This document shows, in pieces, positions 1 through 62,245 of a stretch of DNA of 64,000 nucleotides. The translations under genes and the position numbers were made by a program. How positions within the stretch are numbered: the first letter of the stretch is position 1; every line of letters begins with the position of its first letter. Below the pieces are notes generated by a model. It did no database searches. It was not told the DNA's origin and saw only the letters and a program-made list of their open reading frames with translations. Source of the DNA: Microcoleus sp. BR0-C5 (lineage in GTDB: Bacteria > Cyanobacteriota > Cyanobacteriia > Cyanobacteriales > Microcoleaceae); assembly GCA_036705045.1 (NCBI GenBank), contig JAUBTR010000019.1. The stretch is one strand, 5' to 3'.

Positions 1-77
1 TTCTTCCTTCTTCCTTCTTCCTTCTTCCTTCTTCCTTCTTCCTTCTTCCTTCTTCCTTCTTCCTTCTTCCTTCTTCC
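1..77. repeat. Heptamer tandem repeat (TTCTTCC)n, about 11 copies, STRR-like, truncated by the window edge
   Basis: Perfect 7-bp periodicity can be read directly at the window start. Confidence 0.9.
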
Positions 78-79
78 CT

Positions 80-1339
80 CTAAAACACAGTGCCGTCACT
101 TTCAATCTGAATTGGCGGCACTCCACCGGGCCTCAATTCGCCCGCAATTTTCCGCCCCGCCGTCCAAGTTCCTCCTTGCAAAATCTTCACCAGCGGCAAT
201 TGATCCGCACTCAAATGCAGCTTTTCTCGAATAGCTGCGGCAATTTTATCTAAAAGATTGACAGTGAGCGATCGCCATTCCACTATAACTTCCGAACCAG
301 GCAAGTAACTCTGTTCAAAAATAGCCGAATCTTTTGCCTGCAGCAGCCCGATATCCAAACACAAACCGCCGTTGCGGTACTCCGGCAATCCCGTTAACTC
401 ATCCAATCCAGTCACTTCTAAACCAAGTTCCTGCAGCGGTTCCAACAGCGAATAAGTCAACCACTGCGAGAGTTTGTGAAACGGCACCAAGTCATCGCCG
501 AGATTTTCTCCTGTTAAAGCCGGATGCCGCCAAACATCGCCTAAATTAACACCACCAATTGCATATCTTCCCGGCCAAATTTCCCCAAAACCTGTCAAAA
601 TAGCGCTCAATACTTCAGCAGCCTTCACAGTGTTGACTCCCGAAACCCCACTGTCGAGCAAGTATTTTGCTAAATTACCGGAACGCGGGTTTTCGCTGCC
701 AAATAATAATGGATGCTGGCAAATCGCATTTCCCAAACGCTGCAATAATTCTAATCTGCCTGTTAAACCAACTAGCGGATTGTCTCGACTTACCTGAAAT
801 CCCGCCGCTAAGCTTTCTAGTTTTAATTTAGAAAGTCCCTGAGAATCAGCTTGCCAAGGAAAATCGGGATTGCTGGAAAAAACACCTTGACAAAACATCC
901 GCAAGCTGGCTATTGCTAACCCTTCAGAACGGCGGTAAACCTGCCCGGTTTCTTGTTCACAATACTGCCAATCTGCACCAGCACCGGCATCAAGCAAAAC
1001 GCTGACAATTGCTAAATCAAATTTGATCTTAGCTTGCTCTATGAGTGCAAATTCTGCTAAAGCTGCATTCAATTCGGCGAGTCGCGACAAGTTGCCAGCT
1101 TCAAAATGTCGCCAGCGACTGTGAAAGGGAATGTTAAAATCGGGATACTGTTGGCGCGTTGTGTCAATTACATAATTTGCTGCTTTGTCGAGTTGGGATA
1201 AATCGACGCGGAAGTAGCGGAGTTTGTCCTGGCTGGCTAAATCAAAAAGCCGATCGCACTTTTGGCGAATAGCAGCCGGCGTTCTCAGATATTCTACAGT
1301 CTCAAGTTCAATATTGTGCAACTTCATACTACCAAACAT
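80..1339 (-). CDS. DUF1688-family protein (URC4-like, uracil-catabolism-associated)
   Basis: 419-aa ORF. Its overall composition and motifs resemble the DUF1688/URC4 family. It lies near a GTP-cyclohydrolase-II-like gene, as in URC modules. Confidence 0.5.
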   Translation of the reverse strand: MFGSMKLHNIELETVEYLRTPAAIRQKCDRLFDLASQDKLRYFRVDLSQLDKAANYVIDTTRQQYPDFNIPFHSRWRHFEAGNLSRLAELNAALAEFALIEQAKIKFDLAIVSVLLDAGAGADWQYCEQETGQVYRRSEGLAIASLRMFCQGVFSSNPDFPWQADSQGLSKLKLESLAAGFQVSRDNPLVGLTGRLELLQRLGNAICQHPLLFGSENPRSGNLAKYLLDSGVSGVNTVKAAEVLSAILTGFGEIWPGRYAIGGVNLGDVWRHPALTGENLGDDLVPFHKLSQWLTYSLLEPLQELGLEVTGLDELTGLPEYRNGGLCLDIGLLQAKDSAIFEQSYLPGSEVIVEWRSLTVNLLDKIAAAIREKLHLSADQLPLVKILQGGTWTAGRKIAGELRPGGVPPIQIESDGTVF

Positions 1340-2406
1340 CGGTAAACATCGTTTTCTTGAAAAAAGTCAAACTGACTGTAATCTAAAAGATTATCTAAAA
1401 TCGCATTTTTATCGATTTTGATCAGCTTATATTCCCACTTCGACCCGCTGACTTCGCGTTTTATGTGATCGGAAACTATCACCGAGTTTTTTTCTTTTCC
1501 CGGAGACACTATTTTACTTAAATCTTCCAGCCTGTCCGCGATGTGAATATCTTTTCCGTAAGTGCAAGACCTAAATATATATAAATTTCCCTTAGCAACT
1601 CCCACCGACAAGCCACAAGGTATTTGATTGGCGTTAATAAAAAGTTTCCAATTCTCGCACAGACTTTCCATTGCCGCTAAGGCTGAGTGAGCTTCCGGGA
1701 AAGTCAACAAATGCGAATCACCAACAATACTCCGAATTGTGCCACCGTATTCTTCGCAAATTGTTTTTTCAAAAGTATCAAAGTTTGTGAGCAAATATTC
1801 AACGTCTTTGATAGAATTAGATTCTTGATAAGCTATAAAACCTCTCAAATCTGCTTTAATTATTGCTTGATTCTTGATGATTCGCGTTTTGTAACTTTGG
1901 TCAACTTTGTAGACTTTTTCAGGTTCGCTCATCCCTTTCAAAGAAAACTCGTTGACAAAAGACGTTTGCACTTCTGCTTTGTTGAGCGCCAGCCATGCTG
2001 CTTGGGACAAATATATTTCATCCGGCGGAGTTACTGATTCTATGCGCGCTGTTAAATTCACCGTATCGCCAAAGATATCTTTATCTTGATGCAAGACATC
2101 TCCTAATGTAATCGACACGCGAATAGCCAATCGTTCGTCGTTCGCCTTGCTAGATTGTTGCGCTCTCAATTCTTGCTGCATTTCTATGGCGGCTACAGCC
2201 GCTGCTGTGACGCTAGGAAAAATTATCCAAAATGAATCACCTTCCCCTTTAATCACGCTGCCTTCATTTCGGGCGCTAATATCTGAAACAAAAGTTTTAT
2301 GCTCGTTTAACAAACTACTTAAGTCCGACTGAGATAATTTTTTGACTCTGGCGGTATATCCACAAATATCTGTTTTTACGATCACACTAGAACGCAAATT
2401 AGCCAT
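1324..2406 (-). CDS. Class III adenylate/guanylate cyclase with two tandem cyclase-homology domains
   Basis: Motifs GDSFWIIF and GDTVNLTARIES mark a CYC catalytic core in the first half. A second, degenerate cyclase-like domain (VGDSHLLTF) follows. Confidence 0.65.
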   Translation of the reverse strand: MANLRSSVIVKTDICGYTARVKKLSQSDLSSLLNEHKTFVSDISARNEGSVIKGEGDSFWIIFPSVTAAAVAAIEMQQELRAQQSSKANDERLAIRVSITLGDVLHQDKDIFGDTVNLTARIESVTPPDEIYLSQAAWLALNKAEVQTSFVNEFSLKGMSEPEKVYKVDQSYKTRIIKNQAIIKADLRGFIAYQESNSIKDVEYLLTNFDTFEKTICEEYGGTIRSIVGDSHLLTFPEAHSALAAMESLCENWKLFINANQIPCGLSVGVAKGNLYIFRSCTYGKDIHIADRLEDLSKIVSPGKEKNSVIVSDHIKREVSGSKWEYKLIKIDKNAILDNLLDYSQFDFFQENDVYRCLVV

Positions 2407-2495
2407 AACCTACCCTGACTGATCAAAAACCAGCAATAAATTTTATGTAGCAAAGACGCGATTGTTCGCGTCCCATCGGTCGCGTCTTTGCCCTC

Positions 2496-3743
2496 TTAAT
2501 CTCCTAAATCGCGTCCGATCGCTTCTGCAAGAATTGTAGCATCTGGCACAGGGTCAGGCGTGTAGTAGCCGGCGGCTTTTTTGGCGACGATTTCGACTTG
2601 TGCGTCTGCGGGAATCCAATCTTCAGGAATGGGGATGCGATCGACCACATGAATGCCAGAATTGATAATCGCATTGTATTTCATATCGCTCATAGAAACT
2701 AAACTGTCAATGCGAGAGATCCCCAACCAGTGCAGCACGTCTGGCATTAGTTCTTGAAACCGCATATCTTGAACTCCCGCCACGCATTCAGTGCGAGCAA
2801 AATAGGCATCAGCTCGATCGCCGCCTTCCTGCCGTTTTCTGGCATTGTACACCAAAAACTTAGTCACTTCCCCCAAAGCTCTCCCTTCCTTGCGGAAGTA
2901 AACTATTACCCCAGAACCGCCGGCTTGTGCCGTTTGGATGCAAATTTCCATCCCGTGTACCAAATAAGGGCGACAAGTGCAGATATCGGAACTGAACACA
3001 TCAGAACCGTTACATTCATCGTGTACCCGTACCGCCAACTGCTTATCCGGGTCAGAAATATTCGCGACATCGCCAATAATATAAACCGTAGTTCCGCCAA
3101 TTGGTGGCAAGAAAACCTGTAAGTCTGGCCGCGTCACTAAATCCGAGAACATTCCCCCTGTTTGCTCAAACAGGACACGGCGGAGGACGCTTTCTTGGGC
3201 GCCGATACGCCGAGCAATTCCCGGCAAATACCATACCGGGTCGATCGCAATTTTAGTTACTGCTAAATTGCCACCTGCTTTGACTATTTTGCCATCAATT
3301 TGCACTCGCCCCTTAGCGATGGCATCTTGCAATTCTGGCATATTCATGTGAGCTTTAGTGACAGCAATTGTCGGTCGAATATCATATCCCTGCTGGATAA
3401 ATGAAGTATAAATTTCGCTGACCAAACCCCCAAACGGATCGAGAGAAACAATCAAATTGCGATCGCCCCAACTCGCGTGCGGCCCGATGTGTGCGGCCGG
3501 AGAGGTGTTGGTAAAATCGGGGCGGTGATCTGCTTGGAGTGCGCCGGAAGCAACTGCTAGCGCGCGATAAACAGAGTAGGAACCCGAATGAGTGCCGATC
3601 GCATTCCGGTGAGACGATTTGGTAAGGCTGCCAATCACAGGCCCCCGTTTCAGCGGATCGATTTCTCCCCAGTGGATGGGATGAGGTTTTGTGCCGGATC
3701 TGTCGGGATGGGATGTTAAAACTATATGCTTGGGTTTTGACAC
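2496..3743 (-). CDS. GTP cyclohydrolase II-like protein (URC1-like)
   Basis: VHDECNGSDVFSSDICTCRPYL matches the RibA zinc-binding block VHSEC..D.FSLRCDCG. A long N-terminal extension is present, as in URC1 proteins. Confidence 0.6.
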   Translation of the reverse strand: MSKPKHIVLTSHPDRSGTKPHPIHWGEIDPLKRGPVIGSLTKSSHRNAIGTHSGSYSVYRALAVASGALQADHRPDFTNTSPAAHIGPHASWGDRNLIVSLDPFGGLVSEIYTSFIQQGYDIRPTIAVTKAHMNMPELQDAIAKGRVQIDGKIVKAGGNLAVTKIAIDPVWYLPGIARRIGAQESVLRRVLFEQTGGMFSDLVTRPDLQVFLPPIGGTTVYIIGDVANISDPDKQLAVRVHDECNGSDVFSSDICTCRPYLVHGMEICIQTAQAGGSGVIVYFRKEGRALGEVTKFLVYNARKRQEGGDRADAYFARTECVAGVQDMRFQELMPDVLHWLGISRIDSLVSMSDMKYNAIINSGIHVVDRIPIPEDWIPADAQVEIVAKKAAGYYTPDPVPDATILAEAIGRDLGD

Positions 3744-4224
3744 AGTTGTTTTTGGCTCTTGCTATGGATGCTGCTGTTAGTTGAAAGTGAAATTGCAATG
3801 TGAAGCAGTGATTTATGATAGCAAAAGGATTCAGGCTCTGGAAGTATCCGGCATAGCCAAACTCGTGAAGCTGACTTGCGCGGTTTCTTCAAAAATATAA
3901 AAATTTTATATTTGTGCTTCAGTGATCGGGGCTGCACTACCAACAACAAAGCTACATATTTAATTCAAGTTTCTTTAGCGATTCTATTTCATTTGTGCAT
4001 GAGATTTTTTTGAACTAACCACAGAGGGCGCAGAGGACGCAGAGCCTATATAAAATATAGAAAGAGGAAAATAGAGATGTTCACAATTCCTGCAAGGGTT
4101 GCTATAGTTACAACTGGTAGTTCTGAATTATCAAGAAAATACATACTACCTCACAAAATTAATGTTGCCAAGTACATCTAATTATTTGCTCAAAAATGGT
4201 CGCGTACCCGCCTCTCTTCTAGAG

Positions 4225-5496
4225 ATGAAATCGATCGCCCCGTCAGCTTCTACTGTGGCGACAAGGGGGAGTGAGAACAATTTTTGTTTGGTGGATTTGG
4301 AAATTGCAGCAGGGGCGATTGTCCAAATTATCCCAGCAGGTACAAAACCTGTATCCTCCTCTGGAGATATCCCAGTTATAGATTTGCAGGGCGGCTTAGT
4401 TTGGCCTTGTTTTGTGGATATGCACACCCATTTAGACAAAGGCCACATTTGGGAACGATCGCCCAATCCCGATGGAACTTTTGCCAGCGCGATCGAAGCG
4501 GTAGGCGCTGATGCCAAAAAAAACTGGAATGCAGAGGATGTTTACCGGCGAATGGAGTTTGGCCTCAAGTGCAGCTACGCCCACGGAACCAAGGCTATCC
4601 GCACTCACATCGACAGCGCGGGCGAACAGGGAACCGTGAGTTTAGAAGTATTTGAAGCGCTGCAAGCCGCATGGGGCGATCGGCTGATATTGCAAGCAGT
4701 TTCCCTAGTTTCCCTCGACTATTTCCTGACACCAGCCGGCGAAAAATTAGCCGATCGCATGGCCCAAACCGGCAGCATTCTCGGCGGCTTCGCCTATATG
4801 AATCCCGACTTAGACAAACAACTCGATCGAGTTTTTGCCTTAGCCAAAGAACGAAATTTAAACCTCGACTTCCACACCGACGAAAACGACGATCCAGAAT
4901 CAGTAACACTGCGGGAAGTCGCAAAAACCGCCATCCGCCATCAATTTTCCGGTCAAATTATCTGCGGACACTGCTGTAGTTTAGCCGTACAACCCTCAGA
5001 TTTAGTAACAGAAACTCTGGAATTAGTCAAGCAAGCAAATATCGGCATTGTCAGCTTGCCGATGTGCAACCTTTACCTGCAAGACCGAGAATCTCAGCAT
5101 ACACCGCGCTGGCGGGGAGTGACACTGCTGCACGAACTCAAAGCAGCCGGAATTCCCGTTGCAGTTGCTAGCGACAATTGTCGCGATCCGTTTTACGGAT
5201 TTGGCGATCATGATGTTTTGGAAGTTTTTAATATGGCAGTCCGCATCGCTCATTTAGATAGGCCTTATGGAGACTGGCCCTGTGCAGTGACAAAGACTCC
5301 AGCCGATTTAATGGGATTGCCGAATTTAGGACGAATTGCAGTTGGTTTACCAGCAGATTTGATTTTGTTTAAGGCGCGGAATTTCAGCGAATTGTTATCT
5401 AGAGCGCAGGGCGATCGCACAGTTTTGCGGCAGGGCATTAAAATTGATACAGCTTTGCCAGATTACCGCGAACTAGACGAATTGTTAGCAACTTAA
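4225..5496 (+). CDS. codA: Cytosine deaminase-like amidohydrolase
   Basis: Motif FVDMHTHLDKGH and HTDE...D.. metal ligands fit the CodA family. The ORF track begins at 4162, but alignment to CodA N-termini favours the ATG at 4225. Confidence 0.65.
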   Translation: MKSIAPSASTVATRGSENNFCLVDLEIAAGAIVQIIPAGTKPVSSSGDIPVIDLQGGLVWPCFVDMHTHLDKGHIWERSPNPDGTFASAIEAVGADAKKNWNAEDVYRRMEFGLKCSYAHGTKAIRTHIDSAGEQGTVSLEVFEALQAAWGDRLILQAVSLVSLDYFLTPAGEKLADRMAQTGSILGGFAYMNPDLDKQLDRVFALAKERNLNLDFHTDENDDPESVTLREVAKTAIRHQFSGQIICGHCCSLAVQPSDLVTETLELVKQANIGIVSLPMCNLYLQDRESQHTPRWRGVTLLHELKAAGIPVAVASDNCRDPFYGFGDHDVLEVFNMAVRIAHLDRPYGDWPCAVTKTPADLMGLPNLGRIAVGLPADLILFKARNFSELLSRAQGDRTVLRQGIKIDTALPDYRELDELLAT

Positions 5497-5521
5497 ATGT
5501 GACATTTTGCACCAATATAAA

Positions 5522-5563
5522 GAACAGGCAAGATGCCTGTTCCACAAAGATGAATTTTCTTTC
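5522..5563. repeat. Copy of a dispersed hairpin element (GAACAGGCAAGATGCCTGTTCCACAA-AGATGAATTTTCTTTC)
   Basis: Same core as at 9107-9227, 19316-19500, 57609-57722 and the intragenic copies in nadE and ureC. Confidence 0.8.
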
Positions 5564-5742
5564 TACTCGTTACTAGGCAGAGCCGGGGAACCAGTTAATT
5601 GAGTTTTGTGGAACGGGCATATTGCACGTTCTTGACAATGGTGTAATATGTAGGTTTTAAAAAGCATTTAGCATTGGTATATTGTCAATTCGCCACTATT
5701 TTGATATAAATATAAAAGCTAATTCTAGTGAGGATGTTTTAA

Positions 5743-6417
5743 GTGAAAGCAGTTATTTTATTATCAGGAGGGCTGGATTCCTCAACTGTTTTGTATCAAG
5801 CCAAAGCCGACGGCTGCGAGTGTTATGCTATTTCCTTTGACTACAAGCAAAGACATCGGCGGGAGTTGGAATCAGCGCGGGCGATCGCACTTTCGGCAGC
5901 GGTTAAGGCACATCAGATAGTAAACTTTGACCTCACACTGTGGGGCGGTTCGGCTTTGACGGATAATCAGATGGAATTGCCGATCGATCGCAATCTGGCA
6001 GAAATGTCCCAAAACATCCCTATTACCTACGTTCCAGCTAGAAATACGATCTTTCTCAGCTTTGCCCTCGCCTACGCAGAAACTCTAGAAGCCGATCGCA
6101 TTTACATCGGTGTCAACGCTTTAGATTATTCGGGATATCCCGACTGCCGCCTCGATTACATCCAAGCAATGCAGGAAGTATTTCGGTTAGGAACAAAGCA
6201 GGGAAGGGAAGGAGAAGCTATTAATATTATAACACCTTTGATCGAACTTAAAAAAACAGAAATTATTCAATTAGGCAACAAGTTGGGAGTGCCTTGGGAG
6301 CAAACTTGGTCTTGCTACGCAGGCGGCGAAAATGCGTGCGGCGTTTGCGATTCTTGTCGGTTGCGGCTGGCTGCTTTTGAGGAATTGGGGCTGAAAGATC
6401 CGGTGCCTTATGCTTAA
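5743..6417 (+). CDS. queC: 7-cyano-7-deazaguanine synthase
   Basis: N-terminal SGGLDSS PP-loop and a C-terminal Cys cluster (CGVCDSC) are typical of QueC. 224 aa. Confidence 0.9.
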   Translation: MKAVILLSGGLDSSTVLYQAKADGCECYAISFDYKQRHRRELESARAIALSAAVKAHQIVNFDLTLWGGSALTDNQMELPIDRNLAEMSQNIPITYVPARNTIFLSFALAYAETLEADRIYIGVNALDYSGYPDCRLDYIQAMQEVFRLGTKQGREGEAINIITPLIELKKTEIIQLGNKLGVPWEQTWSCYAGGENACGVCDSCRLRLAAFEELGLKDPVPYA

Positions 6418-6557
6418 ACAGTATTCCGATTCGGCGGTTGAAAGCGCTCCTCCATAAACTCTGCTCGCTCTCTAAGAGACTAAAGAATAAACGGGGTTGC
6501 CCACTCAGATTTGGTATAAAAAGTTGCGCTATTTTGCTCGCCCTTTTCATCAAAATC

Positions 6558-8066
6558 TCAACTAGAAAATTTCGCCACACTACTCACCCCGCTATTCTTT
6601 CGCCCTTTCCCCACAACTTCCTCATCCGCTGCTGCAACTTCATCTAAAGCTCGATCGCCCGCCGCCCCTGACAACAAGTGAATTTGAAGTTGCTCCAACC
6701 GCGGCCCGGACACAGAAACAACCGTAAGTTCCACATTTTCGCAGCGCCAAACTTCCCCCACAGCCGGCATTCTTTGCAACTGATAGCTCAGAAAACCTCC
6801 GATTGTCTGATATTCGTCAGTTACTGGCAAATCCAAATTCAATATTTGATTCACATCATCTAAATTTAACTGCGCTTGCACTAAATAAGTGCGATCGTCC
6901 AATACTTGCAAAGCAATTTCTTTACTGTCGGGTGACTCGTAGCTGCGGCCGATAATTTCGGCTATCAAATCCCGCAATGTCACTAACCCGGAAATGCCGC
7001 CAAATTCATCAACTACGATCGCAATTTCTTCCGACGAACTCTGCATCAAAGGCAGCAGTTCCCCCAGCAGCATCATCTCCGGCACAAACCTCACCGAACC
7101 CATCCAAGTTACAATTGGCGTGTCGGGAGATAGCAAACCTTCAGCTAGGGGTTTTGCAAGTTGTTTGAAGCCAATAATGCCGATAATGTCGTCGAAAGAA
7201 TCTCCCGTCACGGGATAGCGGGAATGGTTAGAAATCGCCATTTCGTCGAGCAAATTTTGAAAAGTTGCCGTCTTGGGAAGTGCGACAATGCTAGGCCTCG
7301 GCACCATTACTTCTTCTACCCAAACTTCGCCGAATTCAAACACGTTGTTGAGCAATTCTCGCTTTTCTGCTTCCAAGCCGCTGGATTCGCTGGAAGTAGC
7401 TATAATTAATTGCAGTTCTTCGGGAGTAACCGGCCGATGTCTTAGATCGTATTCGATGCCAGCAAACCGCAAAAGCGAGCGAGTAGATTGATTGAGAAAC
7501 GACACAAAGGGCTTGAACAAACGGGCAATCAATAAACTCGGAGGCCCTAAACTTCTGGCTAGCTGTTCGGAATGCAGCAACGCTACAGATTTGGGAAAGA
7601 GTTCGCCCAGTACGATTTGCAGGTAAGCTAGCAACAAAAAAGTTACTATTGATATGCTAAAAGAATGGGCGATCGCCGACTTGATGTAAATTGGCAGTGG
7701 CAAATAGCCGATCGACATTCTCACTAGCACGGCGATCGTACTTTCCCCAATCCAGCCGAGAGCTAAACTAGAAAGAGTGATTCCCAACTGCATTGTCGAG
7801 AGCAATCGCTCAATACTTTGCTGCAAAGATTGCACAGTTAAAGCTGCAACGTCGCCAGCTTCCACTAACTGATTGATGCGCGATCGGCGTACCGTCACCA
7901 TCGAAAACTCAGCCGCCACAAAAAAAGCATTAATCGCAATCAGCAACAGCACTGACAGCAACCGCGACAGCACCTCTGTCAAACTCATCGCGGGTAAATC
8001 AGATATCTCCTGCACTCTCGCCCCTAAAAGTGACACAATGCTCCCTAAAAAAACTTTCTCGATCAA
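6558..8066 (-). CDS. CNNM/HlyC-CorC family transporter (DUF21 - CBS pair - CorC_HlyC)
   Basis: N-terminal multi-TM DUF21 region, then CBS domains and a C-terminal CorC/HlyC transporter-associated domain. The real start may be the internal Met near 7988. Confidence 0.7.
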   Translation of the reverse strand: MIEKVFLGSIVSLLGARVQEISDLPAMSLTEVLSRLLSVLLLIAINAFFVAAEFSMVTVRRSRINQLVEAGDVAALTVQSLQQSIERLLSTMQLGITLSSLALGWIGESTIAVLVRMSIGYLPLPIYIKSAIAHSFSISIVTFLLLAYLQIVLGELFPKSVALLHSEQLARSLGPPSLLIARLFKPFVSFLNQSTRSLLRFAGIEYDLRHRPVTPEELQLIIATSSESSGLEAEKRELLNNVFEFGEVWVEEVMVPRPSIVALPKTATFQNLLDEMAISNHSRYPVTGDSFDDIIGIIGFKQLAKPLAEGLLSPDTPIVTWMGSVRFVPEMMLLGELLPLMQSSSEEIAIVVDEFGGISGLVTLRDLIAEIIGRSYESPDSKEIALQVLDDRTYLVQAQLNLDDVNQILNLDLPVTDEYQTIGGFLSYQLQRMPAVGEVWRCENVELTVVSVSGPRLEQLQIHLLSGAAGDRALDEVAAADEEVVGKGRKNSGVSSVAKFSS

Positions 8067-8104
8067 ACCTGAGAATCCGTCTGCAGGTTTGGTCTTCTTT
8101 TATT

Positions 8105-8794
8105 TTACTTCGCCACTGGAATGCCAGATATTTGCAACTGAAGTTTTTGACCTGGATAATCTGTCAGCGTCAGCGAAACTTCCTTAGCATTTTCCAGCAA
8201 AGCTGTGGGAATACTCACCGTACCGTAAAACACCTGCCCGTTGGGGGGGAGTTCCGACGGCAAATCCTCGGCAGTCGCGCTCAGGGCCCGGCCACGATCG
8301 TCAGTGACGTTCAAGAAACTGTAGAGAAACCTCACAGCTTGGGAACCTTCATTTTTCATGCTCACGTCTAGCAGCATGGAATTGTTGCGCTGACTGGCCG
8401 CGCTCACTTCCAGGGTTATTCCCCCGTCGCGACTGTTCAGGGGAAACTTGGCGCTGGTATTTTGTGCAGCCGGTTTTTTGGCCGCGGCTGGTTTAGAGCT
8501 TGCCTTCTCTGTTTTAGTATTTGCCCCGGCCGTTTTTTCGGGATCGCGACCTTCTACCCGTGCTTTGACGGTTGTGAGAATGTCTTTTTCTTTCAAAATG
8601 CTTACTTGGTCTTTGCTAGCCTGAGTTCCCTGCTTGCCGCTACCAGCATTGTTGCTGGGGCGAATATCGGGTTGAGTCGTTCCTTGCAAGGCTTCGCGAC
8701 CTATAGTAAATCCCCAAACAGAACTCGTCACGCCTGCTCCAAACATCAGAGCCAGCAGAATTAGAGTCAGCACTACCGTCGAATTCACTGCCAT
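8105..8794 (-). CDS. Hypothetical membrane-anchored/secreted protein with a low-complexity Ala/Lys-rich linker
   Basis: N-terminal hydrophobic segment; no recognisable catalytic motifs. Confidence 0.35.
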   Translation of the reverse strand: MAVNSTVVLTLILLALMFGAGVTSSVWGFTIGREALQGTTQPDIRPSNNAGSGKQGTQASKDQVSILKEKDILTTVKARVEGRDPEKTAGANTKTEKASSKPAAAKKPAAQNTSAKFPLNSRDGGITLEVSAASQRNNSMLLDVSMKNEGSQAVRFLYSFLNVTDDRGRALSATAEDLPSELPPNGQVFYGTVSIPTALLENAKEVSLTLTDYPGQKLQLQISGIPVAK

Positions 8795-8979
8795 TGCCTA
8801 TAAGTTTATGCCGAGTCCTAGAAACTGCTTTGTCCGGTCGATCGGCTCCAGCACATTGGCTAACAGGCGATCGGGGACTCAGCAGATCTAAAGATTTTGA
8901 TTTTTGTTCTCTAGTTCTAGCACGGACTGAGAAATTATGTTATAATTCATTTTGAGTTAGGTCGAAGAAATCGACTTAA

Positions 8980-9052
8980 CGGCAGTTGGCCGAGCGGTTT
9001 AGGCAGCGAACTCATAATTCGCCCCAGGCAGGTTCAACTCCTGCACTGCCGA
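8980..9052 (+). tRNA. tRNA-Met (anticodon CAU); an elongator Met type or Ile2/lysidine type
   Basis: Cloverleaf folded by hand: acceptor CGGCAGT/ACTGCCG, D-stem GCCG/AGGC, anticodon stem GCGAA/TTCGC with loop CTCATAA, T-stem GCAGG/CCTGC with loop TTCAACT. Discriminator is A and CCA is not encoded. Confidence 0.85.
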
Positions 9053-9106
9053 TTTAAAATTAATCATGACGCTCCAAGCGCGCAAAACCAGGTTTCTTCC
9101 TACTGA

Positions 9107-9227
9107 TATGTTGCACCATTCTCAAGAACAGGCTTTTCGGCCTGTTCCACAAAGAGTGAATTTTCTTGTGGAACAGGCCGAAAAGCCTGTCCCTAAAAAG
9201 CTTATTGAGAATGGTGCAACATTTGAG
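9107..9227. repeat. About 120-bp nested palindromic MITE-like element with outer arms ATGTTGCACCATTCTC/GAGAATGGTGCAACAT
   Basis: Long, nearly perfect inverted repeat immediately 3' of tRNA-Met. It belongs to the GAACAGGC..GCCTGTTC hairpin family. Confidence 0.8.
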
Positions 9228-9494
9228 TTCCTAGGTACTTGGTTGCTCAAGCCAATATTCTCGTAGAAACCTGGTTTATTTGGCCAAAAATTCGCTAAGG
9301 ACACTAAAAAGCCGGTTTCTGCCGGCTGTGACTCTGATAAATCGGCTTTTTTTACCGTTTCTGCAGGCGTCACCCAAGTATTGCTGTGAAATAACCCGGT
9401 GGATGACCACCCGTGCGTCAAAGACTCTCAATCTTTTTGGGGGGCGTTGCTCCTAGCCCGCCCAAAATATACTAATTTAGTCGAACAGTCAATC

Positions 9495-9533
9495 GATTTT
9501 AGATTTTAGATTTTAGATTTTAGATTTTAGAAT
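9495..9533. repeat. STRR heptamer array (GATTTTA)n; related arrays lie at 9652-9676, 10258-10291, 13725-13755, 36939-36985 and 47908-47935
   Basis: 7-bp periodic tandem repeats, read directly. Confidence 0.9.
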
Positions 9534-9678
9534 TGAAGCATTGACCCCACGGATAAATTCGGGGGCTCCTTTATCGGATACAGGTTTTTTATTTCTGGAC
9601 GGATGAATCCGGGGGCTTGTATCCCGGATGCTTGATTGTCAGTTTTGCCCAATCTAAAATCTCAAATCTCAAATCGTA

Positions 9679-10212
9679 TTATCCCTTAATTAACTCCACT
9701 CCGTCGCGCCCGTCGAGTTCTTGAACGTAAACCTTAACTTGTTCTTCCTTTGCAGTCGGCAACTTTTTACCCGTAAAATCCGGCTGAATCGGTACTTCTC
9801 GGTGGCCACGATCGACTAATACCGCTAACCAAATTTTCTCCGGCCGCCCATAATCGTTGACCGCATTCAAAGCCGCTCGAATCGTTCTGCCTTTATATAT
9901 AACGTCATCTACCAACACCACAGTTTTGCCCGTCAAATCGAAAGGAATTTCTGTTTTAGCCGGTGTCCGCATCGCAACTCGATCCAAGTCATCTCGGTAA
10001 AAGGTAATATCCAAAGCGCCCACGGGTACTTTGACTTGTTCGAGGACTTCAATTTGATCTGCCAAAATTTGAGCTAAAGGCACTCCTCTACTATGAATGC
10101 CCAACAGCACTAACTCCGAGGGATTCCCTGATTTTTCGACAATCTGGGAAGCGACGCGGGTGAGAGTGCGCCTCACTTCATCAGGCGATAAAATTTGGAT
10201 AATTTTAGTCAT
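9679..10212 (-). CDS. pyrR: Bifunctional pyrimidine operon regulator / uracil phosphoribosyltransferase PyrR
   Basis: [21 protein letters not shown]-binding motif; about 178 aa from the internal Met MTKIIQIL. The ORF-track extension to 10437 runs through an STRR array and is probably not coding. Confidence 0.85.
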
Positions 10213-10485
10213 TGGTTGCTGCGAGCTAATTGTTGGCTGTTGGCATATCGAACAATTTGAGATTTGAGATTTGAGATTTGAGATTTGAGATTGACTTGAC
10301 AGATGAATCTGGGGGTTTGAACAAAGGTCAAAACTTTTTTTGCTGCTGTCGGTGGCGGATCTCTGTCTTCTGCAGGACTTACCCCGAACGGATGAAAAGC
10401 AGATGCTGCGATTGCTTGGCTGAGCGCGAACAATCACAGAAATACGTTATTTATGCCTCCTGGACTGTTCTAGTGAGGTCATAAG

Positions 10486-11580: not shown

Positions 11581-11674
11581 ACTTGATAGTCCGGCCGAGC
11601 AGGAGCGATCGCAATGGTAGCGCAGGTTTTAACTACTGCTACCCTTGCGGAGGCAAGATTTTTGAGCTGCAATT

Positions 11675-48658: not shown

Positions 48659-48816
48659 CCATAATATTAATGTACAAATTAACCGAAATTCGCTATCAAA
48701 GGGCATTATAAGCGAATTTATCCGACAAATATCTGCAATCTTCATCAAATATTTACAAAAAGATATGGTGTTTGTCACTATAATTAAGAAAAAGAAGTTT
48801 GTCCGGGGTTTTTTTT

Positions 48817-50241: not shown

Positions 50242-50351
50242 ATTTTAGATTGAAGTCAGTAGTCAGTAGTCAGTAGTCAGTAGTCAACAGTCAACAGTCA
50301 ACAGTCAACAGTCAACAGTCAACAGTCAACAGTCAACAGTCAACAGTCAAC
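50216..50351. repeat. Compound STRR array (GATTTTA)4-(AGTCAGT)4-(CAACAGT)n
   Basis: Three consecutive heptamer repeat types, overlapping the pncB stop region. Confidence 0.9.
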
Positions 50352-50366
50352 AATTACCGATTCCCT

Positions 50367-57724: not shown

Positions 57725-59482
57725 TTAAAACAAAAAGTATCGCTGCGCCATTGGCAAAACTGTTGCCGGTTCGCAAGTTAACAATTCCCCATCCGCCCTG
57801 ACTTCATAAGTTTCTGGATCGACTTCCATTTGTGGCAAATAATCGTTTAGTTTCATGTCTCTTTTACTAATTTGTCGTGTCCCGGAAACTGCTACAGTGG
57901 GCTTTTGCAAACCGAGCTGTGCTGCAATACCTCGATCGCGCGCAGCTTGGGAAACAAACGTCAGACAAGTCGCCCCAATCGCCCCGCCAAAACTGCCAAA
58001 CATCGGCCTCATGTGCACTGGTTGCGGCGTAGGAATGCTGGCGTTAGCATCTCCCATCTGCCCATAGGCGATCGCCCCTCCTTTAATTACCAGTTCCGGT
58101 TTCACCCCAAAAAAAGCCGGTCGCCACAAACACAAATCCGCCAATTTTCCCTCTTCCACCGAACCGACATACTGACTAATTCCGTGAGTAATTGCCGGAT
58201 TAATTGTATATTTCGCAATGTACCGCTTCACCCGAAAATTGTCATTTTCTCCCCCTGTGGAACGGGCATCTTGCCCGCCCAAACCCCCTGTGGAACGGGC
58301 ATCTGGTCCGTTCAAATTCCCCCTTTGAACCTTCATTTTATGTGCCGTTTGCCAAGTCCGAATAATCACCTCTCCAACTCTTCCCATCGCCTGAGAATCA
58401 GAAGAAATCATACTAAACGCGCCTAAATCGTGGAGAATATCCTCAGCAGCAATAGTTTCCCTTCTAATTCTCGATTCAGCAAAAGCCACATCTTCAGGAA
58501 TGCCCCGATCCAAATGGTGGCAAACCATCAACATATCTAAATGTTCTTCTAAAGTATTGACAGTGTAAGGGCGAGTCGGGTTAGTTGACGAGGGCAAAAC
58601 ATTAGCTTGACCGCACACTTTAATAATATCCGGCGCGTGTCCGCCGCCAGCACCTTCGGTGTGGTAAGTGTGAATAGCGCGATTTTTAAATGCGGCAATT
58701 GTAGCTTCCACAAATCCCGCTTCATTGAGAGTATCGGTGTGAATTGCAACTTGCACATCGTACTCGTCAGCTACACTCAAACAAGTGTCGATCGTTGCTG
58801 GTGTAGTTCCCCAATCTTCATGGAGTTTCAAACCCATTGCACCGGCAAAGATTTGTTCAATTAATCCTTGGGGTTGACTGCTATTTCCTTTACCTAAAAA
58901 TCCTAGATTTACGGGGAAAGCGTCAGCAGCTTGCAGCATTCGGTACATATGCCAAGGCCCTGGAGTGCAAGTTGTGGCGTTTGTACCCGTTGCCGGGCCA
59001 GTGCCGCCGCCGATCATTGTCGTGATGCCGGAGGCGATCGCCACTTCTATTTGCTGCGGACAAATAAAGTGAATGTGAGTATCAATTCCCCCAGCGGTGA
59101 GAATCATTCCTTCACCGGCAATCACTTCTGTACCGGGCCCGATAATAATATCTACCCTATCTTGAATATAAGGATTTCCGGCTTTACCAATTTTGTAAAT
59201 TTTGCCGTCTTTAATGCCCACATCTGCTTTAACAATTCCCCACCAGTCTAATATTAAAGCATTAGTAATCACCGTGTCAACAGCGCCGTCTGCATTAGAA
59301 ATAGGCGACTGTCCCATGCCGTCGCGAATAACTTTGCCACCGCCAAACTTAACTTCATCCCCGTAGGTTGTGAAGTCTTTTTCAACTTCTATGAATAATT
59401 CTGTATCGGCTAACCGGACGCGATCGCCCACAGTCGGCCCGAAGGTTTCCGCGTAGGCGCGGCGATCCATTCTGTAACTCAT
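57725..59482 (-). CDS. ureC: Urease alpha subunit, with an in-frame repeat insertion
   Basis: Amidohydrolase metal ligands ([13 protein letters not shown], carbamylated-Lys region); 585 aa. The insert [24 protein letters not shown] is encoded by two copies of the GAACGGGCAAGATGCCCGTTCCACA repeat. Confidence 0.9.
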
Positions 59483-59487
59483 ATTAA

Positions 59488-60492
59488 TTAGCTCCTTACT
59501 TGATTTAATTTTCCCACAAACTGGTTCACCTGTTCTTCTGTTTTAAAGAATCCTTCACCAATTGAACCAAAGAAATCATCTTGTGCTATTTCTTGATAGT
59601 TAGGTAACAAATTAGCCAACTCTTCTACATCAATGTTTAAATAGTTTGACAATCTATCTATGTATACCTTAAACTTTAGACCCTCCCTAGGCGTGCTTTC
59701 AGTTAACAAAAGATTGAAAATAACTTGGCTATTTTGACTTGTTCCTCTCAATGCCAGACCTCTTGTTGTTGTATTTATCCAAAATATTTGTGGTATGATT
59801 TCGTTGTAAAGTAGTCTATACACTTTTCCAACTTCCTTGCTCTCTGCTATTTCAATTAATTCTTCCAGGGTCAAGTTGGGCTTTCTTTTTGATATTATAT
59901 TTACAGGTTTAATTTCAGCCTCAATCAAGAATTTTATTGCTAGTAACTCTCTACCACTAGAGTCACAGAAATACTGGAATGTTGCGACATTGATTCTCAC
60001 ACCATAAGTTTCTAATAAGTATTTAATAATCCTTTCAGAACTACTATCTATCTGTGCAGCTACAATTATAATTTTGTGCTGAGCATTCAAAATATCAGGG
60101 AATTCTGAGCTAAATTTCTCACAGAAAGCCTTTTCTAAGTTACTGCCATTTTTAGTCAGTAAATAAGCATTGGCAATTTCTCTAACTCTCTCGTTTGACA
60201 AATCCTTAACCCATGAGGCGTAATCCAAGGCTTGTGCTGTTACTTCTCTTGCTGTTTTGTCCTTCTTTAACTCAACAATGACTAAATCTCCGTTCCTATC
60301 TATACATAAAAGGTCAAGTTGTCCACCATAATCAGTAATCACTTGCCGACCAATTACCAAGAGATCATCTGCTAGGATTGAAATATCATTATCTAGCCAG
60401 GTTTCTAAACGAGATTCTAAGTCTAACTTAGATTGGGTAATTTCCTTCAAGTGAGCCTTTGATATTTTCCACAATCTAATTTGATCGGGCAT
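59488..60492 (-). CDS. PD-(D/E)XK nuclease-like protein (NucS/DUF91-like N-terminal domain) inserted between ureB and ureC
   Basis: [24 protein letters not shown] fits the D...(D/E)xK restriction-endonuclease-like core. The C-terminal about 200 aa are uncharacterised. Confidence 0.35.
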
Positions 60493-60559
60493 ATCGAATT
60501 ATACTCCTACTAATTATTGTTTTTAAGTTCGGCAAAAAAGTCTCTTCCATCTAAAAATC

Positions 60560-60871
60560 TCATTCATCTAATATACCGTTCACTTTTCCATTAAAACCGT
60601 AGACTTGACGACTACCAACAAACGGCACTAATTGAACTTCCCTTTCATCTCCGGGTTCAAACCTGACTGCTGTACCTGCGGGGATATCCAACCGCATTCC
60701 TTTTGCTTGTTCTCGATTAAATTCTAAGGCTTCGTTTGCCTCATAAAAGTGATAGTGGGAACCGATTTGAATGGGTCGATCGCCTTTATTTCCTACCAGC
60801 AACCGCACCGTTGGGCGAGCGGCATTTAATTCTATTTCGCCTGCTGAAACAATCATTTCTCCGGGAATCAT
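60560..60871 (-). CDS. ureB: Urease beta subunit
   Basis: MIPGE...IELNAGR...GSHYHFYE, the classical UreB sequence. Confidence 0.9.
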
Positions 60872-60904
60872 CTTTTCCTCCTCTGAGTATCTGTGGTTGA
60901 TTTT

Positions 60905-61207
60905 TTAACGTATCGGATCGTGGACTGTTACCAACTTAGTTCCATCGGGGAAAGTCGCCTCAACCTGGACTTCATGCACCATTTCTGCTATCCCTTCCAT
61001 CACATCTTCCCGCGTCAGGAGAGTTGTTCCGTAACTCATTAAATCGGCGACGGTGAGGCCATCTCTTGCTCCTTCTAAAATGGCGGCGGAAATGTAAGCT
61101 AGTGCTTCTGGATAGTTTAATTTTAAACCTCTTTGTTTCCGGCGCTCTGCTACCAAGGCAGCGGTGAAAATCAGCAGTTTGTCTTTTTCTTGGGGGGTGA
61201 GTTGCAT
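60905..61207 (-). CDS. ureA: Urease gamma subunit
   Basis: [35 protein letters not shown], the classical UreA sequence. Confidence 0.9.
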
Positions 61208-61369
61208 TTTTATTCGGGTAAGTGCGATCGCATTATTTGATTATGATATCGTTTACGGTGGTTTCTGAATGATTTAACCGCAAAGGGCGCTGAGGGCGCT
61301 GAGTCAGAGAACAGAGAGATGAATAATCTAGTTAGGAGGGCAACTATACATTGAAACTCAAAGATCATC

Positions 61370-62245
61370 CTATTTTATCCAAACTCTGGGCAAACAGCAA
61401 GGGCGTTCTGAAAAAGATAAGCGCAGCAAGTGCCAAATGTTGACAAACCAGTCTCTAGCTGCGGTTGTCGATGTACCGCGATATCGGCACAGCAAACCGT
61501 TAGGAATACGAGTCACGCCGACGGTGGAATTACCAGGATAAATTGTTGCCTCACAAGGCAAATCTCGCACTTTTTCCACGATTTCTGTGGTTACGGGTTC
61601 GCCTACCCAAGCGAGGGTGGCGACTACGGGTTTTCCTGCGAGACCGTGAGGACTTTCGAGCATTTTTTCTCCACCTTTTAGCAATTGTCTGTCAATCCAT
61701 AAAGGGCTATTTTGTTGCCAGACTTCGGTGTGCGATCGCCATTCTCCAAACAAAAACTTTTCGCCCCTAGCACTGCGTCCAAATCGGGTAATTTCCCACA
61801 GTAAAATCCTCGCTGTTGGTGCTAATTCTACCCGCAAATTTTGCCGATATATTGCGCCGTCAAAAACTATAGTTTCCTGTGGTAGCCATTCTACATTAGC
61901 ACCGGGTTCTAGTTTGATGTCAATATTTTGTTGTGATTCTAGTCCGCTGCTGCGATAGATTTTACCAGCGGCAGCCGTGGTAATCAAGACTTTGGCGTTG
62001 GGTTGGAGGTGAAAATGGCTGGAAAGTCGATCGCCCCCGACAACTCCCCCAGCCGTGTGCAAGATGACGCTGTGACAAACGTCTTTCCCTTCAGGATAAA
62101 ACGGACGCTGCACCTTTAGGGGCGCTTGCATTTGATTGTGAATGATTTGAGTTGAGCCGCTGCGGTTAGCGTAGACTAAATTGAGGTAGCCGTGCCATCC
62201 ATTTTCAACTTGATCTATATGTTGTTTGGTCAAATTTTCAGTCAC
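61370..62245 (-). CDS. ureD: Urease accessory protein UreD/UreH
   Basis: About 290 aa, positioned upstream of ureA on the same strand; UreD-like composition. Confidence 0.7.
   Translation of the reverse strand: MTENLTKQHIDQVENGWHGYLNLVYANRSGSTQIIHNQMQAPLKVQRPFYPEGKDVCHSVILHTAGGVVGGDRLSSHFHLQPNAKVLITTAAAGKIYRSSGLESQQNIDIKLEPGANVEWLPQETIVFDGAIYRQNLRVELAPTARILLWEITRFGRSARGEKFLFGEWRSHTEVWQQNSPLWIDRQLLKGGEKMLESPHGLAGKPVVATLAWVGEPVTTEIVEKVRDLPCEATIYPGNSTVGVTRIPNGLLCRYRGTSTTAARDWFVNIWHLLRLSFSERPCCLPRVWIK

Follow-up and report, generated by a model that had tools for sequence, protein, structure and literature searches.

The locus described here raises two questions. The first is whether a DUF1688 gene and a GTP-cyclohydrolase-II-like gene of Microcoleus sp. 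BR0-C5 belong to a bacterial counterpart of the yeast URC pathway of uracil catabolism, and the second is whether the nucleotidyl cyclase gene lying between them takes part in it. The whole stretch of DNA analysed (the window) is 64,000 nucleotides long. As one joint reading, it is considered probable that the locus represents, in Microcoleus, a three-gene uracil-to-urea operon that is widespread in bacteria (a scheme first described in yeast), and that the cyclase is a lineage-specific, compositionally distinct insertion rather than an integral pathway component. The sole oddities of the Microcoleus version are the adenylate cyclase gene inside the operon and the cytosine deaminase gene adjoining it.

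Layout of the locus

The four predicted genes that a preliminary description had placed at 80-5496 (DUF1688/URC4, a two-domain class III cyclase, a URC1-type GTP-cyclohydrolase-II-like gene and a divergent cytosine-deaminase-like gene) are all present as described. That description had, however, overlooked the public annotation, which already names all four accordingly, with 'URC4/urg3 family protein', 'GTP cyclohydrolase II' and 'cytosine deaminase' among the names. The relevant features of the window are as follows.

1..79, minus strand: heptanucleotide tandem repeat (GGAAGAA)n, directly past the URC4 stop codon
80..1339, minus strand: URC4/urg3 (DUF1688; Pfam PF07958)
1324..1327, minus strand: ATGA stop/start overlap of cyclase and URC4, read from the sequence
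1324..2406, minus strand: stand-alone tandem class III cyclase (Pfam Guanylate_cyc)
2450..2491, minus strand: conserved RNA hairpin with a 13-bp stem in the URC1/cyclase gap, beginning 5 nt past the URC1 stop codon
2496..3743, minus strand: URC1/urg1-type GTP-cyclohydrolase-II-like gene (GTP_CH_N + GTP_cyclohydro2; NCBIfam PRK07198)
3744..4161: intergenic region between the divergent genes, with two blocks of strong conservation
4162..5496, plus strand: cytosine-deaminase-like amidohydrolase (CodA-like; NCBIfam PRK07583)
9679..10437, minus strand: PyrR, bifunctional pyr regulator and uracil phosphoribosyltransferase (NCBIfam PyrR, 246 bits, cut-off 138)
57725..62245, minus strand: urease genes ureD-ureA-ureB-(NucS_C-like insert)-ureC (Pfam)
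61370-62245, minus strand: ureD (Pfam)
60905-61207, minus strand: ureA (Pfam)
60560-60871, minus strand: ureB (Pfam)
57725-59482, minus strand: ureC (Pfam)
62440-63624: formamidase, gene confirmed

The URC1- and URC4-like genes, put at about 1.1 kb apart on the same strand, are separated by 1156 nt, both on the minus strand, and the divergent gap of about 400 bp measures 418 nt. The urease operon and formamidase, cited as lying in the same window, are real genes but are more than 54 kb from the URC genes, which indicates shared presence in the genome and not linkage; urease would be the sink for urea from the URC route. Synteny of PyrR with the URC locus is found within Microcoleus only.

The CodA-like ORF scored 694 bits against PRK07583 (cut-off 403). 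Assignment to the E. coli CodA subfamily was rejected (PRK09230, 137 bits against a cut-off of 483). The cytosine deaminase does stand divergently beside the URC genes, but this adjacency is restricted to the Microcoleus-type clade, being found among 80 loci only in Microcoleus-type loci and L006. The queC gene lies 250 bp from the CodA-like gene in the window. Its adjacency is likewise confined to Microcoleus-type loci, with one more locus (L049) having a 36% QueC match near URC4. An alignment of seven Microcoleus loci placed the conserved intergenic blocks at 3744-3868 (URC1 side) and 4072-4161 (CodA side). Both are presumably promoters and leaders, and the URC1-side block is retained even where CodA is absent or displaced by an insertion. 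Neither a canonical NtcA site nor an Rfam element was found in 3744..4161.

The URC1-URC4-upp operon across bacteria

Gene neighbourhoods were compared in the 80 best-scoring of 575 URC4 loci, a sample that leans to cyanobacteria but spans at least seven phyla; 74 were testable for neighbours. They come from Cyanobacteria, Myxococcota, Planctomycetota, Actinomycetota, Bdellovibrionota and Alpha-, Beta- and Gammaproteobacteria, Legionella included. In 72 of the 74, URC4 is immediately preceded by URC1 in the same orientation, and 55 have upp, the uracil phosphoribosyltransferase gene (yeast URC6/urg2), downstream in that orientation; the upp cluster matched Pfam UPRTase with 248 bits. In addition, P0320 is a natural URC1-URC4 fusion protein of 786 aa. 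The core is thus a conserved URC1-URC4-upp operon, and the pairing of URC1 with URC4 is not coincidental. Conservation of the neighbourhood, put forward earlier as a check, holds for these two genes but not for the cyclase (9/80 loci). The yeast components listed earlier, URC1 and URC4, were correct, but the third core enzyme, URC6/urg2, had been overlooked.

The upp gene is not inside the window. In sister Microcoleus genomes (L011, L009 and L015) it is found 174-1250 nt downstream of URC4, beyond the (GGAAGAA)n repeat that is common to the sister loci, and on this basis the upp of the present locus falls just past the left edge of the window. In Nostocales, the loci also contain genes for nucleoside ABC transporters of the Bmp type and a gene resembling ureidoglycolate lyase. 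No experimental demonstration of a bacterial URC pathway was found in the literature searched.

The cyclase within the operon

The cyclase is a protein of 360 aa that matched Pfam Guanylate_cyc with 68.5 bits over residues 9-166. No Pfam match to a second cyclase domain was obtained even at E<=10. BLASTP nevertheless aligns the N half with the C half (E=7e-8, 25% identity), and two domains are also visible in the predicted fold (pLDDT 89), which matches Ma1120, AC9 and human soluble adenylyl cyclase (sAC); the tandem-domain architecture claimed for the protein is thus borne out. The two domains are as follows.

Residues ~3-170, nt ~2400-1897, minus strand: N-terminal domain, full catalytic set
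Residues ~175-330, nt ~1884-1417, minus strand: C-terminal domain, divergent

Across 24 orthologues, Lys53, Asp110, Asn117, Arg121, Asp13 and Asp57 are conserved in the cyanobacterial proteins, and in the C-terminal domain only the two metal-binding Asp are invariant. Stand-alone proteins with tandem cyclase-homology domains form a conserved family, to which this one belongs. Its Lys/Asp specificity pair predicts adenylate cyclase activity, with ATP as substrate.

The longest URC4 ORF overlaps the cyclase gene by 16 bp, as noted before, but the annotated URC4 start (ATG at 1327, 415 aa) leaves a 4-bp ATGA overlap. This junction also occurs in sister loci L009-L016 and is conserved in all Microcoleus-type loci. 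It suggests translational coupling, so the co-transcription proposed earlier is plausible and the cyclase is probably co-expressed with URC4. On its other side, the hairpin at 2450..2491 has a folding z-score of -3.5 and compensatory double changes at 6 of 15 predicted pairs in an alignment of 11 loci. No dispersed copies of it occur in the window, and it may partially terminate transcription, or else stabilise or help to process the transcript.

The most serious alternative gives the cyclase an active function in the module. It could be a sensor or regulator making cAMP in proportion to operon flux or in response to a pathway metabolite bound at its second, non-canonical nucleotide pocket, or else an enzyme acting on a pyrimidine nucleotide to give cUMP or cCMP. 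The ATGA overlap and the hairpin favour such a role, and the URC1-hairpin-cyclase order is held down to 85% cyclase identity in L006. A 68% orthologue in L005 adjoins a cytosine/purine permease (Transp_cyt_pur). In view of the L006 and L005 contexts, the cyclase may have some functional tie to pyrimidine metabolism. The protein also resembles human sAC in having tandem cyclase-homology domains without any other sensor domain, and in its C-domain both metal-binding Asp are invariant, whereas the Lys/Asp pair that specifies purines is missing. The degenerate site of human sAC binds a small regulator.

The distribution of the gene argues against this alternative. The cyclase is inside the operon in only nine of 80 URC4 loci, in each of which URC4 has 80% or more identity to that of the window; the insertion is confined to Microcoleus-type genomes and absent from the other 71 loci, all other cyanobacterial genera among them. 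Outside the clade, 8 of 10 orthologue contexts examined are unrelated to pyrimidines, the orthologues in these eight having 45-71% identity. In L022, a metagenome-assembled genome in which the pattern may partly be an assembly artefact, CodA, URC1, URC4 and upp are fragmentary and the cyclase is intact. Its GC content of 39.3%, compared with 50.2% and 46.7% in the flanking genes, suggests a secondary insertion. The canonical Lys/Asp pair predicts ATP, not a pyrimidine nucleotide, as substrate. Pycsar PycC models gave only ~19 bits, and no effector gene is present. A cNMP-linked regulatory or enzymatic role in the pathway, as suggested in the preliminary description, is therefore not upheld. 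A working part for the cyclase in the module is considered unlikely, and the insertion reading is preferred.

URC4 and the proposed route

The DUF1688 assignment was confirmed by HMM search (PF07958, 517 bits, cut-off 25), and the protein is 100% identical to the 'URC4/urg3 family protein' of Microcoleus sp. BR0-C5. Its sequence profile found no match among PDB sequences. Its AlphaFold model (pLDDT 94.6), searched against the PDB with Foldseek, gave significant matches solely to Qng1/DUF2419 (n=11; best E 4.5e-9, TM 0.78), the next-best match having E=0.45. The sole sequence-level support for this relationship is one relative that matched Pfam Q_salvage below threshold (22.5 bits against 25). 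Candidate catalytic residues, invariant or nearly so, are D329, D268, D117 and K289. Qng1 is a queuosine-5'-monophosphate N-glycosylase (PMC9881137), and a match to this nucleoside-5'-monophosphate N-glycosylase alone fits urea release from ribosylurea (phosphate). URC4 is thus proposed to be a urea-releasing N-glycosylase acting on ribosylurea (5'-phosphate).

The following route is a proposal for bacteria based on yeast genetics and protein folds. The divergent CodA-like enzyme would convert cytosine to uracil, and Upp (just off the window) or PyrR would form UMP from uracil and PRPP. URC1, a GTP-cyclohydrolase-II-like zinc hydrolase with the whole GCHII catalytic set, would then open the pyrimidine ring of a uridine nucleotide hydrolytically, so that a C3 fragment is released and ribosylurea (phosphate) remains. 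URC4, with its Qng1 fold, would cut the N-glycosidic bond to yield urea and ribose(-5-phosphate), and the urease of the same genome would convert urea to ammonia.

Alternatively, bacterial URC1 and URC4 may have some other N-ribosyl substrate (for example, a modified pyrimidine or 7-deazapurine nucleotide) and not act in bulk uracil catabolism for nitrogen. The queuosine-monophosphate glycosylase fold of URC4, the proximity of queC to CodA and a promoter region lacking a canonical NtcA nitrogen-control site would all suit such a role, and the biochemical steps of URC1, its substrate included, are uncharacterised even in yeast (PMC7530994). However, the queC adjacency is limited to the Microcoleus-type loci and L049, the conserved third gene encodes a uracil phosphoribosyltransferase, and the transporters and ureidoglycolate-lyase-like gene of Nostocales fit nucleobase and urea metabolism. 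A different substrate is considered improbable, and uracil catabolism remains the preferred function.

URC1 and its distinction from RibA

The URC1 ORF matched Pfam GTP_CH_N (285 bits) and GTP_cyclohydro2 (60 bits), and aligned nearly full length with PDB 7EJ3/7EEV (E=2e-175, 587 bits). It scored 733 bits against NCBIfam PRK07198 (cut-off 403), and RibA/RibBA models gave 44-61 bits, far under their cut-offs of 148-764. The ORF at 2496-3743 thus belongs to the URC1 family, as had been supposed. Loss of riboflavin-pathway residues, put forward as the discriminator, fails because the Zn Cys triad and the equivalents of Tyr105 and Arg128 are all kept in alignment with E. coli RibA; URC1 is told apart by domain architecture, family HMM scores and gene context. 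It is proposed to be a pyrimidine-ring-opening hydrolase acting on a uridine nucleotide. That it is a plain riboflavin RibA with a meaningless DUF1688 neighbour is scarcely credible despite these residues and the PGAP name 'GTP cyclohydrolase II', given the HMM scores, a 190-aa GTP_CH_N domain absent from RibA, the operonic linkage to URC4 (72/74 loci) and upp (55/74), the URC4 fusion in P0320, and fungal orthologues that are uracil-induced and required for uracil catabolism (PMC7530994, PMC2174524).

Comparison with known systems

RibA GTP cyclohydrolase II (E. coli, PDB 2BZ0) can be aligned with the catalytic domain at the C-terminus of URC1, but URC1 has the additional N-terminal domain as well as inserted residues following the conserved Tyr, and its gene context is uracil metabolism instead of riboflavin.

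Each half of the cyclase has the class III fold of single-domain mycobacterial Ma1120 (TM about 0.9), and the whole-length model aligns with the two-domain cores of human sAC and AC9, although a pTM of 0.69 and an rmsd to sAC of about 18 Å leave its domain orientation uncertain. In the N-domain, all the metal-binding, Lys/Asp and Asn/Arg residues of known class III cores are present. Unlike tandem cores such as sAC C1-C2, the protein has only 360 aa and no regulatory domain, and its C-domain is undetectable by Pfam.

URC4 shares its fold with Qng1/QNG1 (TM 0.74-0.80 normalised to target, E down to 4.5e-9), at 14-17% sequence identity over the Foldseek alignments, and is ~100 residues longer. 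Qng1 cleaves the N-glycosidic bond of a ribonucleotide-like substrate, the kind of reaction implied for URC4 by yeast genetics; the leaving group is queuine for Qng1 and, as proposed, urea for URC4. Qng1 uses catalytic Asp231 and Lys199, for which URC4 offers only the candidate counterparts listed above.

Yeast URC provides the closest comparison. In Lachancea kluyveri, ribosylurea is made by URC1 and URC6 and degraded to urea by URC4 (PMC7530994), and in Schizosaccharomyces pombe urg1, urg2 and urg3 are clustered and uracil-induced (PMC2174524). The Microcoleus locus, with function predicted from sequence, differs in having a cyclase within the operon and a cytosine deaminase upstream. Bacterial loci in general are tight URC1-URC4-upp operons, unlike yeast URC. 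They lack the URC2 transcription factor, no URC8 short-chain dehydrogenase is among the conserved neighbours of URC4, and the proposed fate of urea is urease instead of urea amidolyase (URC3,5). Nevertheless, clustering is common to the S. pombe and bacterial genes, and the same three families (GTP_CH_N plus GCHII-like, DUF1688 and uracil phosphoribosyltransferase) recur. The bacterial operon is probably homologous to URC1/urg1, URC4/urg3 and URC6/urg2, and its predicted end product, as in yeast, is urea.

Gene content of the locus

Three minus-strand genes and one plus-strand gene occupy positions 1-6500 of the window. They are listed here with the other features that bear on the pathway.

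1-79, minus strand: (GGAAGAA)n heptanucleotide tandem repeat, directly 3' of the URC4 stop codon
80-1339, minus strand: URC4/DUF1688 gene, 419 aa; PF07958 at 517 bits, profile positions 1-420 of 420
1324-2406, minus strand: cyclase gene, 360 aa; Guanylate_cyc (PF00211) at 68.5 bits, residues 9-166
2450-2491, minus strand: 13-bp hairpin, beginning 5 nt past the URC1 stop codon
2496-3743, minus strand: URC1 gene, 415 aa; GTP_CH_N (PF12471) at 285 bits and GTP_cyclohydro2 (PF00925) at 60 bits
4162-5496, plus strand: CodA-like gene, 444 aa; PRK07583 'cytosine deaminase' model (NF005759) at 694 bits
9679-10437: gene for PyrR (UPRTase activity), in the window, syntenic within the genus only
57725-62245: ureD, ureA, ureB and ureC, more than 54 kb from the URC genes
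62440-63624: formamidase gene, more than 54 kb from the URC genes

Each of the four proteins encoded at 80-5496 has an identical counterpart in the consecutive Microcoleus sp. BR0-C5 records MEG4986396-99, whose names are 'URC4/urg3 family protein', 'adenylate/guanylate cyclase domain-containing protein', 'GTP cyclohydrolase II' and 'cytosine deaminase'. Since the genes of the preliminary description were found as described and are named alike in public records, that observation is confirmed; its DUF1688 assignment is borne out by the full-length PF07958 match. The 16-bp overlap that it reported between the cyclase and URC4 genes is true of the longest open reading frame, but with the annotated URC4 start, an ATG at 1327, the overlap shrinks to an ATGA shared with the cyclase stop codon.

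Conservation of the URC1-URC4-upp operon

Searching 1.84 billion cluster representatives with phmmer yielded 2632 DUF1688 representatives, 39 of which were aligned. In a scan of one genome per species, 575 stretches were found to encode a URC4 relative; the best 80 loci were fetched and their neighbours tallied by tblastn, in a sample skewed to cyanobacteria. Among these best 80 of 575, 74 loci have enough upstream sequence; 72 of them carry URC1 immediately 5' of URC4 and in the same orientation, and the gap between the two genes is mostly below 250 nt. A gene of about 211 aa lies downstream of URC4, again on the same strand, at 55 of 74 loci and matches Pfam UPRTase at 248 bits (upp, uracil phosphoribosyltransferase). 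The order URC1-URC4-upp is near-universal in the bacterial loci sampled. The cyanobacterial loci come from many genera, and the others from Myxococcus, Corallococcus, Archangium, Kaistia, Microvirga, Asaia, Legionella, Marinobacterium, Rhodoferax, a planctomycete, Antrihabitans and a bdellovibrionote. In a metagenomic protein of 786 aa (P0320), URC1 (GTP_CH_N and GCHII) and URC4 (DUF1688) are naturally fused in a single polypeptide.

Family scores and operon conservation support the interpretation of the URC1-URC4 pair as a URC module. Both components had been named correctly, but upp was overlooked and the reading of the module was incomplete. In three sister Microcoleus loci (L011, L009 and L015), upp follows 174-1250 nt downstream of URC4. 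The left edge of the window lies 79 nt past URC4, within the (GGAAGAA)n repeat, so upp falls outside and was simply cut off. The same repeat also occurs at several places in the sister loci (L009-L016). The genes conserved around the 80 loci include no URC8-type dehydrogenase for the C3 product.

Identity of URC1

Against NCBIfam PRK07198 (NF005536), the URC1 protein scores 733 bits (cut-off 403), which places it in the URC1/urg1 family, and its scores against the RibA and RibBA models of NCBIfam are 44-61 bits, all below cut-offs of 148-764. The two families are separated by these models, but the loss of riboflavin-specific residues that had been suggested as a discriminating mark is absent. 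Aligned to E. coli RibA (PDB 2BZ0), URC1 keeps all three Zn-binding Cys as well as the residues corresponding to Tyr105 and Arg128, and for this reason these residues cannot separate URC1 from RibA. Because they are retained, URC1 is very probably an active ring-opening nucleotide hydrolase. By analogy with yeast genetics, it would be needed for uracil catabolism and would act on a uridine nucleotide. A close solved homologue is PDB 7EJ3/7EEV (E = 2e-175), for which no publication was turned up by a literature search. PGAP calls URC1 orthologues 'GTP cyclohydrolase II', a name likely to lead reconstructions of the riboflavin pathway astray.

Fold of URC4

The AlphaFold model of URC4 (pLDDT 94.6, pTM 0.93) matched 11 PDB chains, which belong to Qng1/DUF2419 only (E 4.5e-9 to 1.6e-7, TM 0.74-0.80); the next structure followed at E = 0.45. 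One DUF1688 relative has a weak match to Pfam Q_salvage (22.5 bits), and no solved structure was found with the URC4 sequence, either singly or as a 39-sequence profile. Qng1 is an N-glycosylase of helix-hairpin-helix fold that frees queuine from queuosine-5'-monophosphate (PMC9881137); DUF1688 goes unmentioned in that paper. The modelled Qng1-like fold suggests that URC4 cleaves the N-glycosidic bond of a ribosylurea nucleotide and so releases urea, and, taken with the yeast findings, it points to URC4 as the enzyme that would free urea from ribosylurea. A queuosine-related function, at which the neighbouring queC gene hinted, was rejected, queC adjacency being essentially confined to Microcoleus-type loci.

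The cyclase within the operon

The two halves of the cyclase are related to each other (BLASTP E = 7e-8), and the second is undetected by Pfam. In the structural model (pLDDT 89), each domain matches the mycobacterial adenylyl cyclase Ma1120 with a TM of 0.9, and the whole length aligns with the two-domain cores of human soluble adenylyl cyclase (sAC) and AC9. Across 24 orthologues, the N-domain conserves the metal-binding residues D13 and D57 together with Arg121; its Lys53/Asp110 pair and Asn117 are kept in all but a Chloroflexi subgroup. D186 and D230 are the sole invariant residues of the C-domain in the same orthologues, and the class III nucleotidyl cyclase residue set is found in the N-domain only. 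As the N-domain set is conserved and the C-domain keeps only its two Asp, the protein is predicted to be an adenylate cyclase with one canonical and one non-canonical site. Its identification as a Pycsar pyrimidine cyclase (PycC) was rejected; the PADLOC PycC model gave about 19 bits (E about 2e-4), no single matched stretch being significant by itself, and in place of an effector gene the neighbours are URC1 and URC4, neither of which has a defence-family match.

The cyclase family, a conserved protein of about 360 aa, occurs in cyanobacteria, Anaerolineae and Acidobacteria. Its gene lies within the URC operon at nine of the 80 loci, all of Microcoleus type. Ten distinct contexts of orthologues outside the Microcoleus-type clade were compared. 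At locus L006 (85% cyclase identity), the cyclase gene is grouped with those for CodA, an ABC transporter and URC1, and URC4 is missing from the vicinity; at L005 (68% identity) the cyclase adjoins a cytosine/purine permease; the remaining eight contexts (45-71% identity) have no pyrimidine-related neighbour. The GC content of the cyclase gene is 39.3%, as against 50.2% for URC1 and 46.7% for URC4. In an Oscillatoriales MAG (PH2015_09S; L022, 97-6917), the cyclase is full-length and 94% identical, and what stands around it looks like a set of pseudogene remnants, comprising the first 91 aa only of CodA, URC1 residues 220-410 in two frames, a frameshifted URC4 and upp residues 5-65.

Our reading of these sequences is that the cyclase would be a secondary insertion, co-expressed with URC4 and dispensable for the pathway. 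The regulatory or enzymatic role earlier proposed for it found no support, given that it is inserted at only nine of 80 loci, has mostly unrelated contexts elsewhere and is intact amid decayed URC genes. Functional coupling to the URC pathway is a minority possibility, kept alive by the contexts at L006 and L005. An unlikely elaboration holds that in Microcoleus and Tychonema the tandem-domain cyclase was recruited into a uracil/cytosine operon as a metabolic reporter, predicted to be translated together with URC4. The second, non-canonical pocket of the cyclase would take up a pyrimidine nucleotide or a product of the pathway, and its cAMP or cyclic pyrimidine nucleotide would signal nucleobase availability in microbial mats. 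The basis offered is that the second pocket keeps the metal-binding Asp without the purine-specifying Lys/Asp pair. Read as a secondary insertion, the cyclase is a lineage curiosity, which would gain importance only through a demonstrated signalling connection with nucleobase catabolism.

Hairpin, leaders and regulation

The hairpin at 2450-2491 has six pairs with compensatory changes over 11 loci and a folding z-score of -3.5. A simple terminator scan found none between URC1 and the cyclase, and the hairpin may set differing transcript levels of URC1 and cyclase-URC4. Its interpretation as a dispersed repeat was rejected, as it is unique within the window.

The 418-nt divergent region between URC1 and CodA contains two conserved blocks, and the URC1 leader block was seen by nhmmer only in Microcoleus-type loci. 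The NtcA site GTAN8TAC is absent from this region in the window and six sister loci, where a loose, conserved GT-N10-AC near CodA is the only NtcA-like candidate. Scanning positions 1-12000 against Rfam (E<=1) gave no riboswitch, only a tRNA and a palindrome away from the leaders. The tRNA gene is at 8980-9052 on the plus strand (52.5 bits), and after it comes a near-perfect palindrome of about 110 nt (9109-9221) with spurious miRNA-family matches on both strands.

CodA and the wider surroundings

The CodA-like protein exceeds the cut-off of 403 for NF005759 (PRK07583) and scores 137 bits, below the cut-off of 483, for the E. coli CodA-type model NF006685; it is a predicted cytosine deaminase of the PRK07583 type. 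Adjacency of CodA and URC1 is limited to the Microcoleus-type loci and L006, and within the sister loci it is absent in L016 and split by an insertion in L013. The URC loci of Nostocales have additional genes for Bmp-type nucleoside ABC transporters, a ureidoglycolate-lyase-like protein and a FAD_binding_4 oxidase, which are possible accessory genes of the pathway. The oxidase, of about 450 aa, is encoded near URC1/CodA at L006 (420-7919, next to CodA) and at the Nostocales loci L024, L027, L034, L041, L044 and L045, and is mutually 64-79% identical across distant cyanobacteria. The transporter and ureidoglycolate-lyase-like genes lie within a few kb at the Nostocales loci.

The urease operon and formamidase to which attention had been drawn are indeed in the window, but at more than 54 kb from the URC genes; ureDABC would supply the urea-degrading enzyme. 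A 334-aa open reading frame (59488-60492, minus strand), weakly matching the NucS_C endonuclease domain (25.6 bits), separates ureB from ureC and stops 5 nt short of the ureC start. Its GC content is 34.6% and its GC3 30.7%, against 45.1% for the window, and it is the window's second low-GC gene inserted within a catabolic operon.

Further genes were noted elsewhere in the window. Two neighbouring open reading frames of 282 and 156 aa at 55581-56913 (minus strand), similar to OrfB_IS605/TnpB, appear to be a split or decayed gene for a TnpB-type transposon-associated nuclease. An NAD salvage and synthesis cluster at 48799-53981 (plus strand) encodes nicotinate phosphoribosyltransferase, a cytidylyltransferase-like (NMNAT-type) protein, a NUDIX-NrtR-type regulator and a glutamine-dependent NAD synthetase. 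A 2128-aa signalling protein encoded at 30508-36894 (minus strand) combines Ser/Thr kinase, AAA_16, GAF, PAS, HisKA, HATPase and receiver domains; after it come a hybrid receiver-histidine kinase and a LuxR-type response regulator.

Proposed route and comparison with known systems

Of the four pathways of pyrimidine degradation, URC is the one least understood, and the chemistry of URC1 and URC4 has yet to be defined. URC1 and URC6 of Lachancea kluyveri form ribosylurea and 3-hydroxypropionate from uracil via uncharacterised steps, and URC4 converts ribosylurea to urea (PMC7530994). Given the family assignments and operon conservation observed here, we infer a bacterial route in which the order of steps follows this yeast scheme, as sharpened by the kept catalytic residues of URC1 and the Qng1-like fold of URC4. 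Uracil, to which the CodA-like enzyme could add by feeding in cytosine, would be converted to UMP by upp or PyrR. URC1 would then open UMP to ribosylurea phosphate and a C3 fragment, URC4 would split ribosylurea phosphate into urea and ribose-5-phosphate, and urease would release ammonia from the urea.

The searched literature treats URC as a yeast pathway, and no experimental work on a bacterial URC pathway was found in it; annotation pipelines already recognise the URC4 family in bacteria. URC1-URC4-upp is a compact and widespread bacterial operon which, with the natural URC1-URC4 fusion, indicates a minimal enzyme set. Myxococcus, Nostoc and Legionella offer tractable bacterial systems for URC chemistry. 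The relation of the URC4 and Qng1 folds and the near-universal gene order are useful leads on the chemistry of the pathway, possibly noted before.

The embedded cyclase and the divergent CodA are variant features of the Microcoleus locus. The bacterial order URC1-URC4-upp reproduces the Schizosaccharomyces pombe cluster of urg1 (GCHII-like), urg2 (UPRTase) and urg3 (DUF1688), which is induced by uracil (PMC2174524). Similarly, bacterial URC1, URC4 and upp correspond to L. kluyveri URC1, URC4 and URC6 respectively (PMC7530994). The systems differ in the disposal of urea, for which the Microcoleus genome has urease, whereas yeast uses urea amidolyase.
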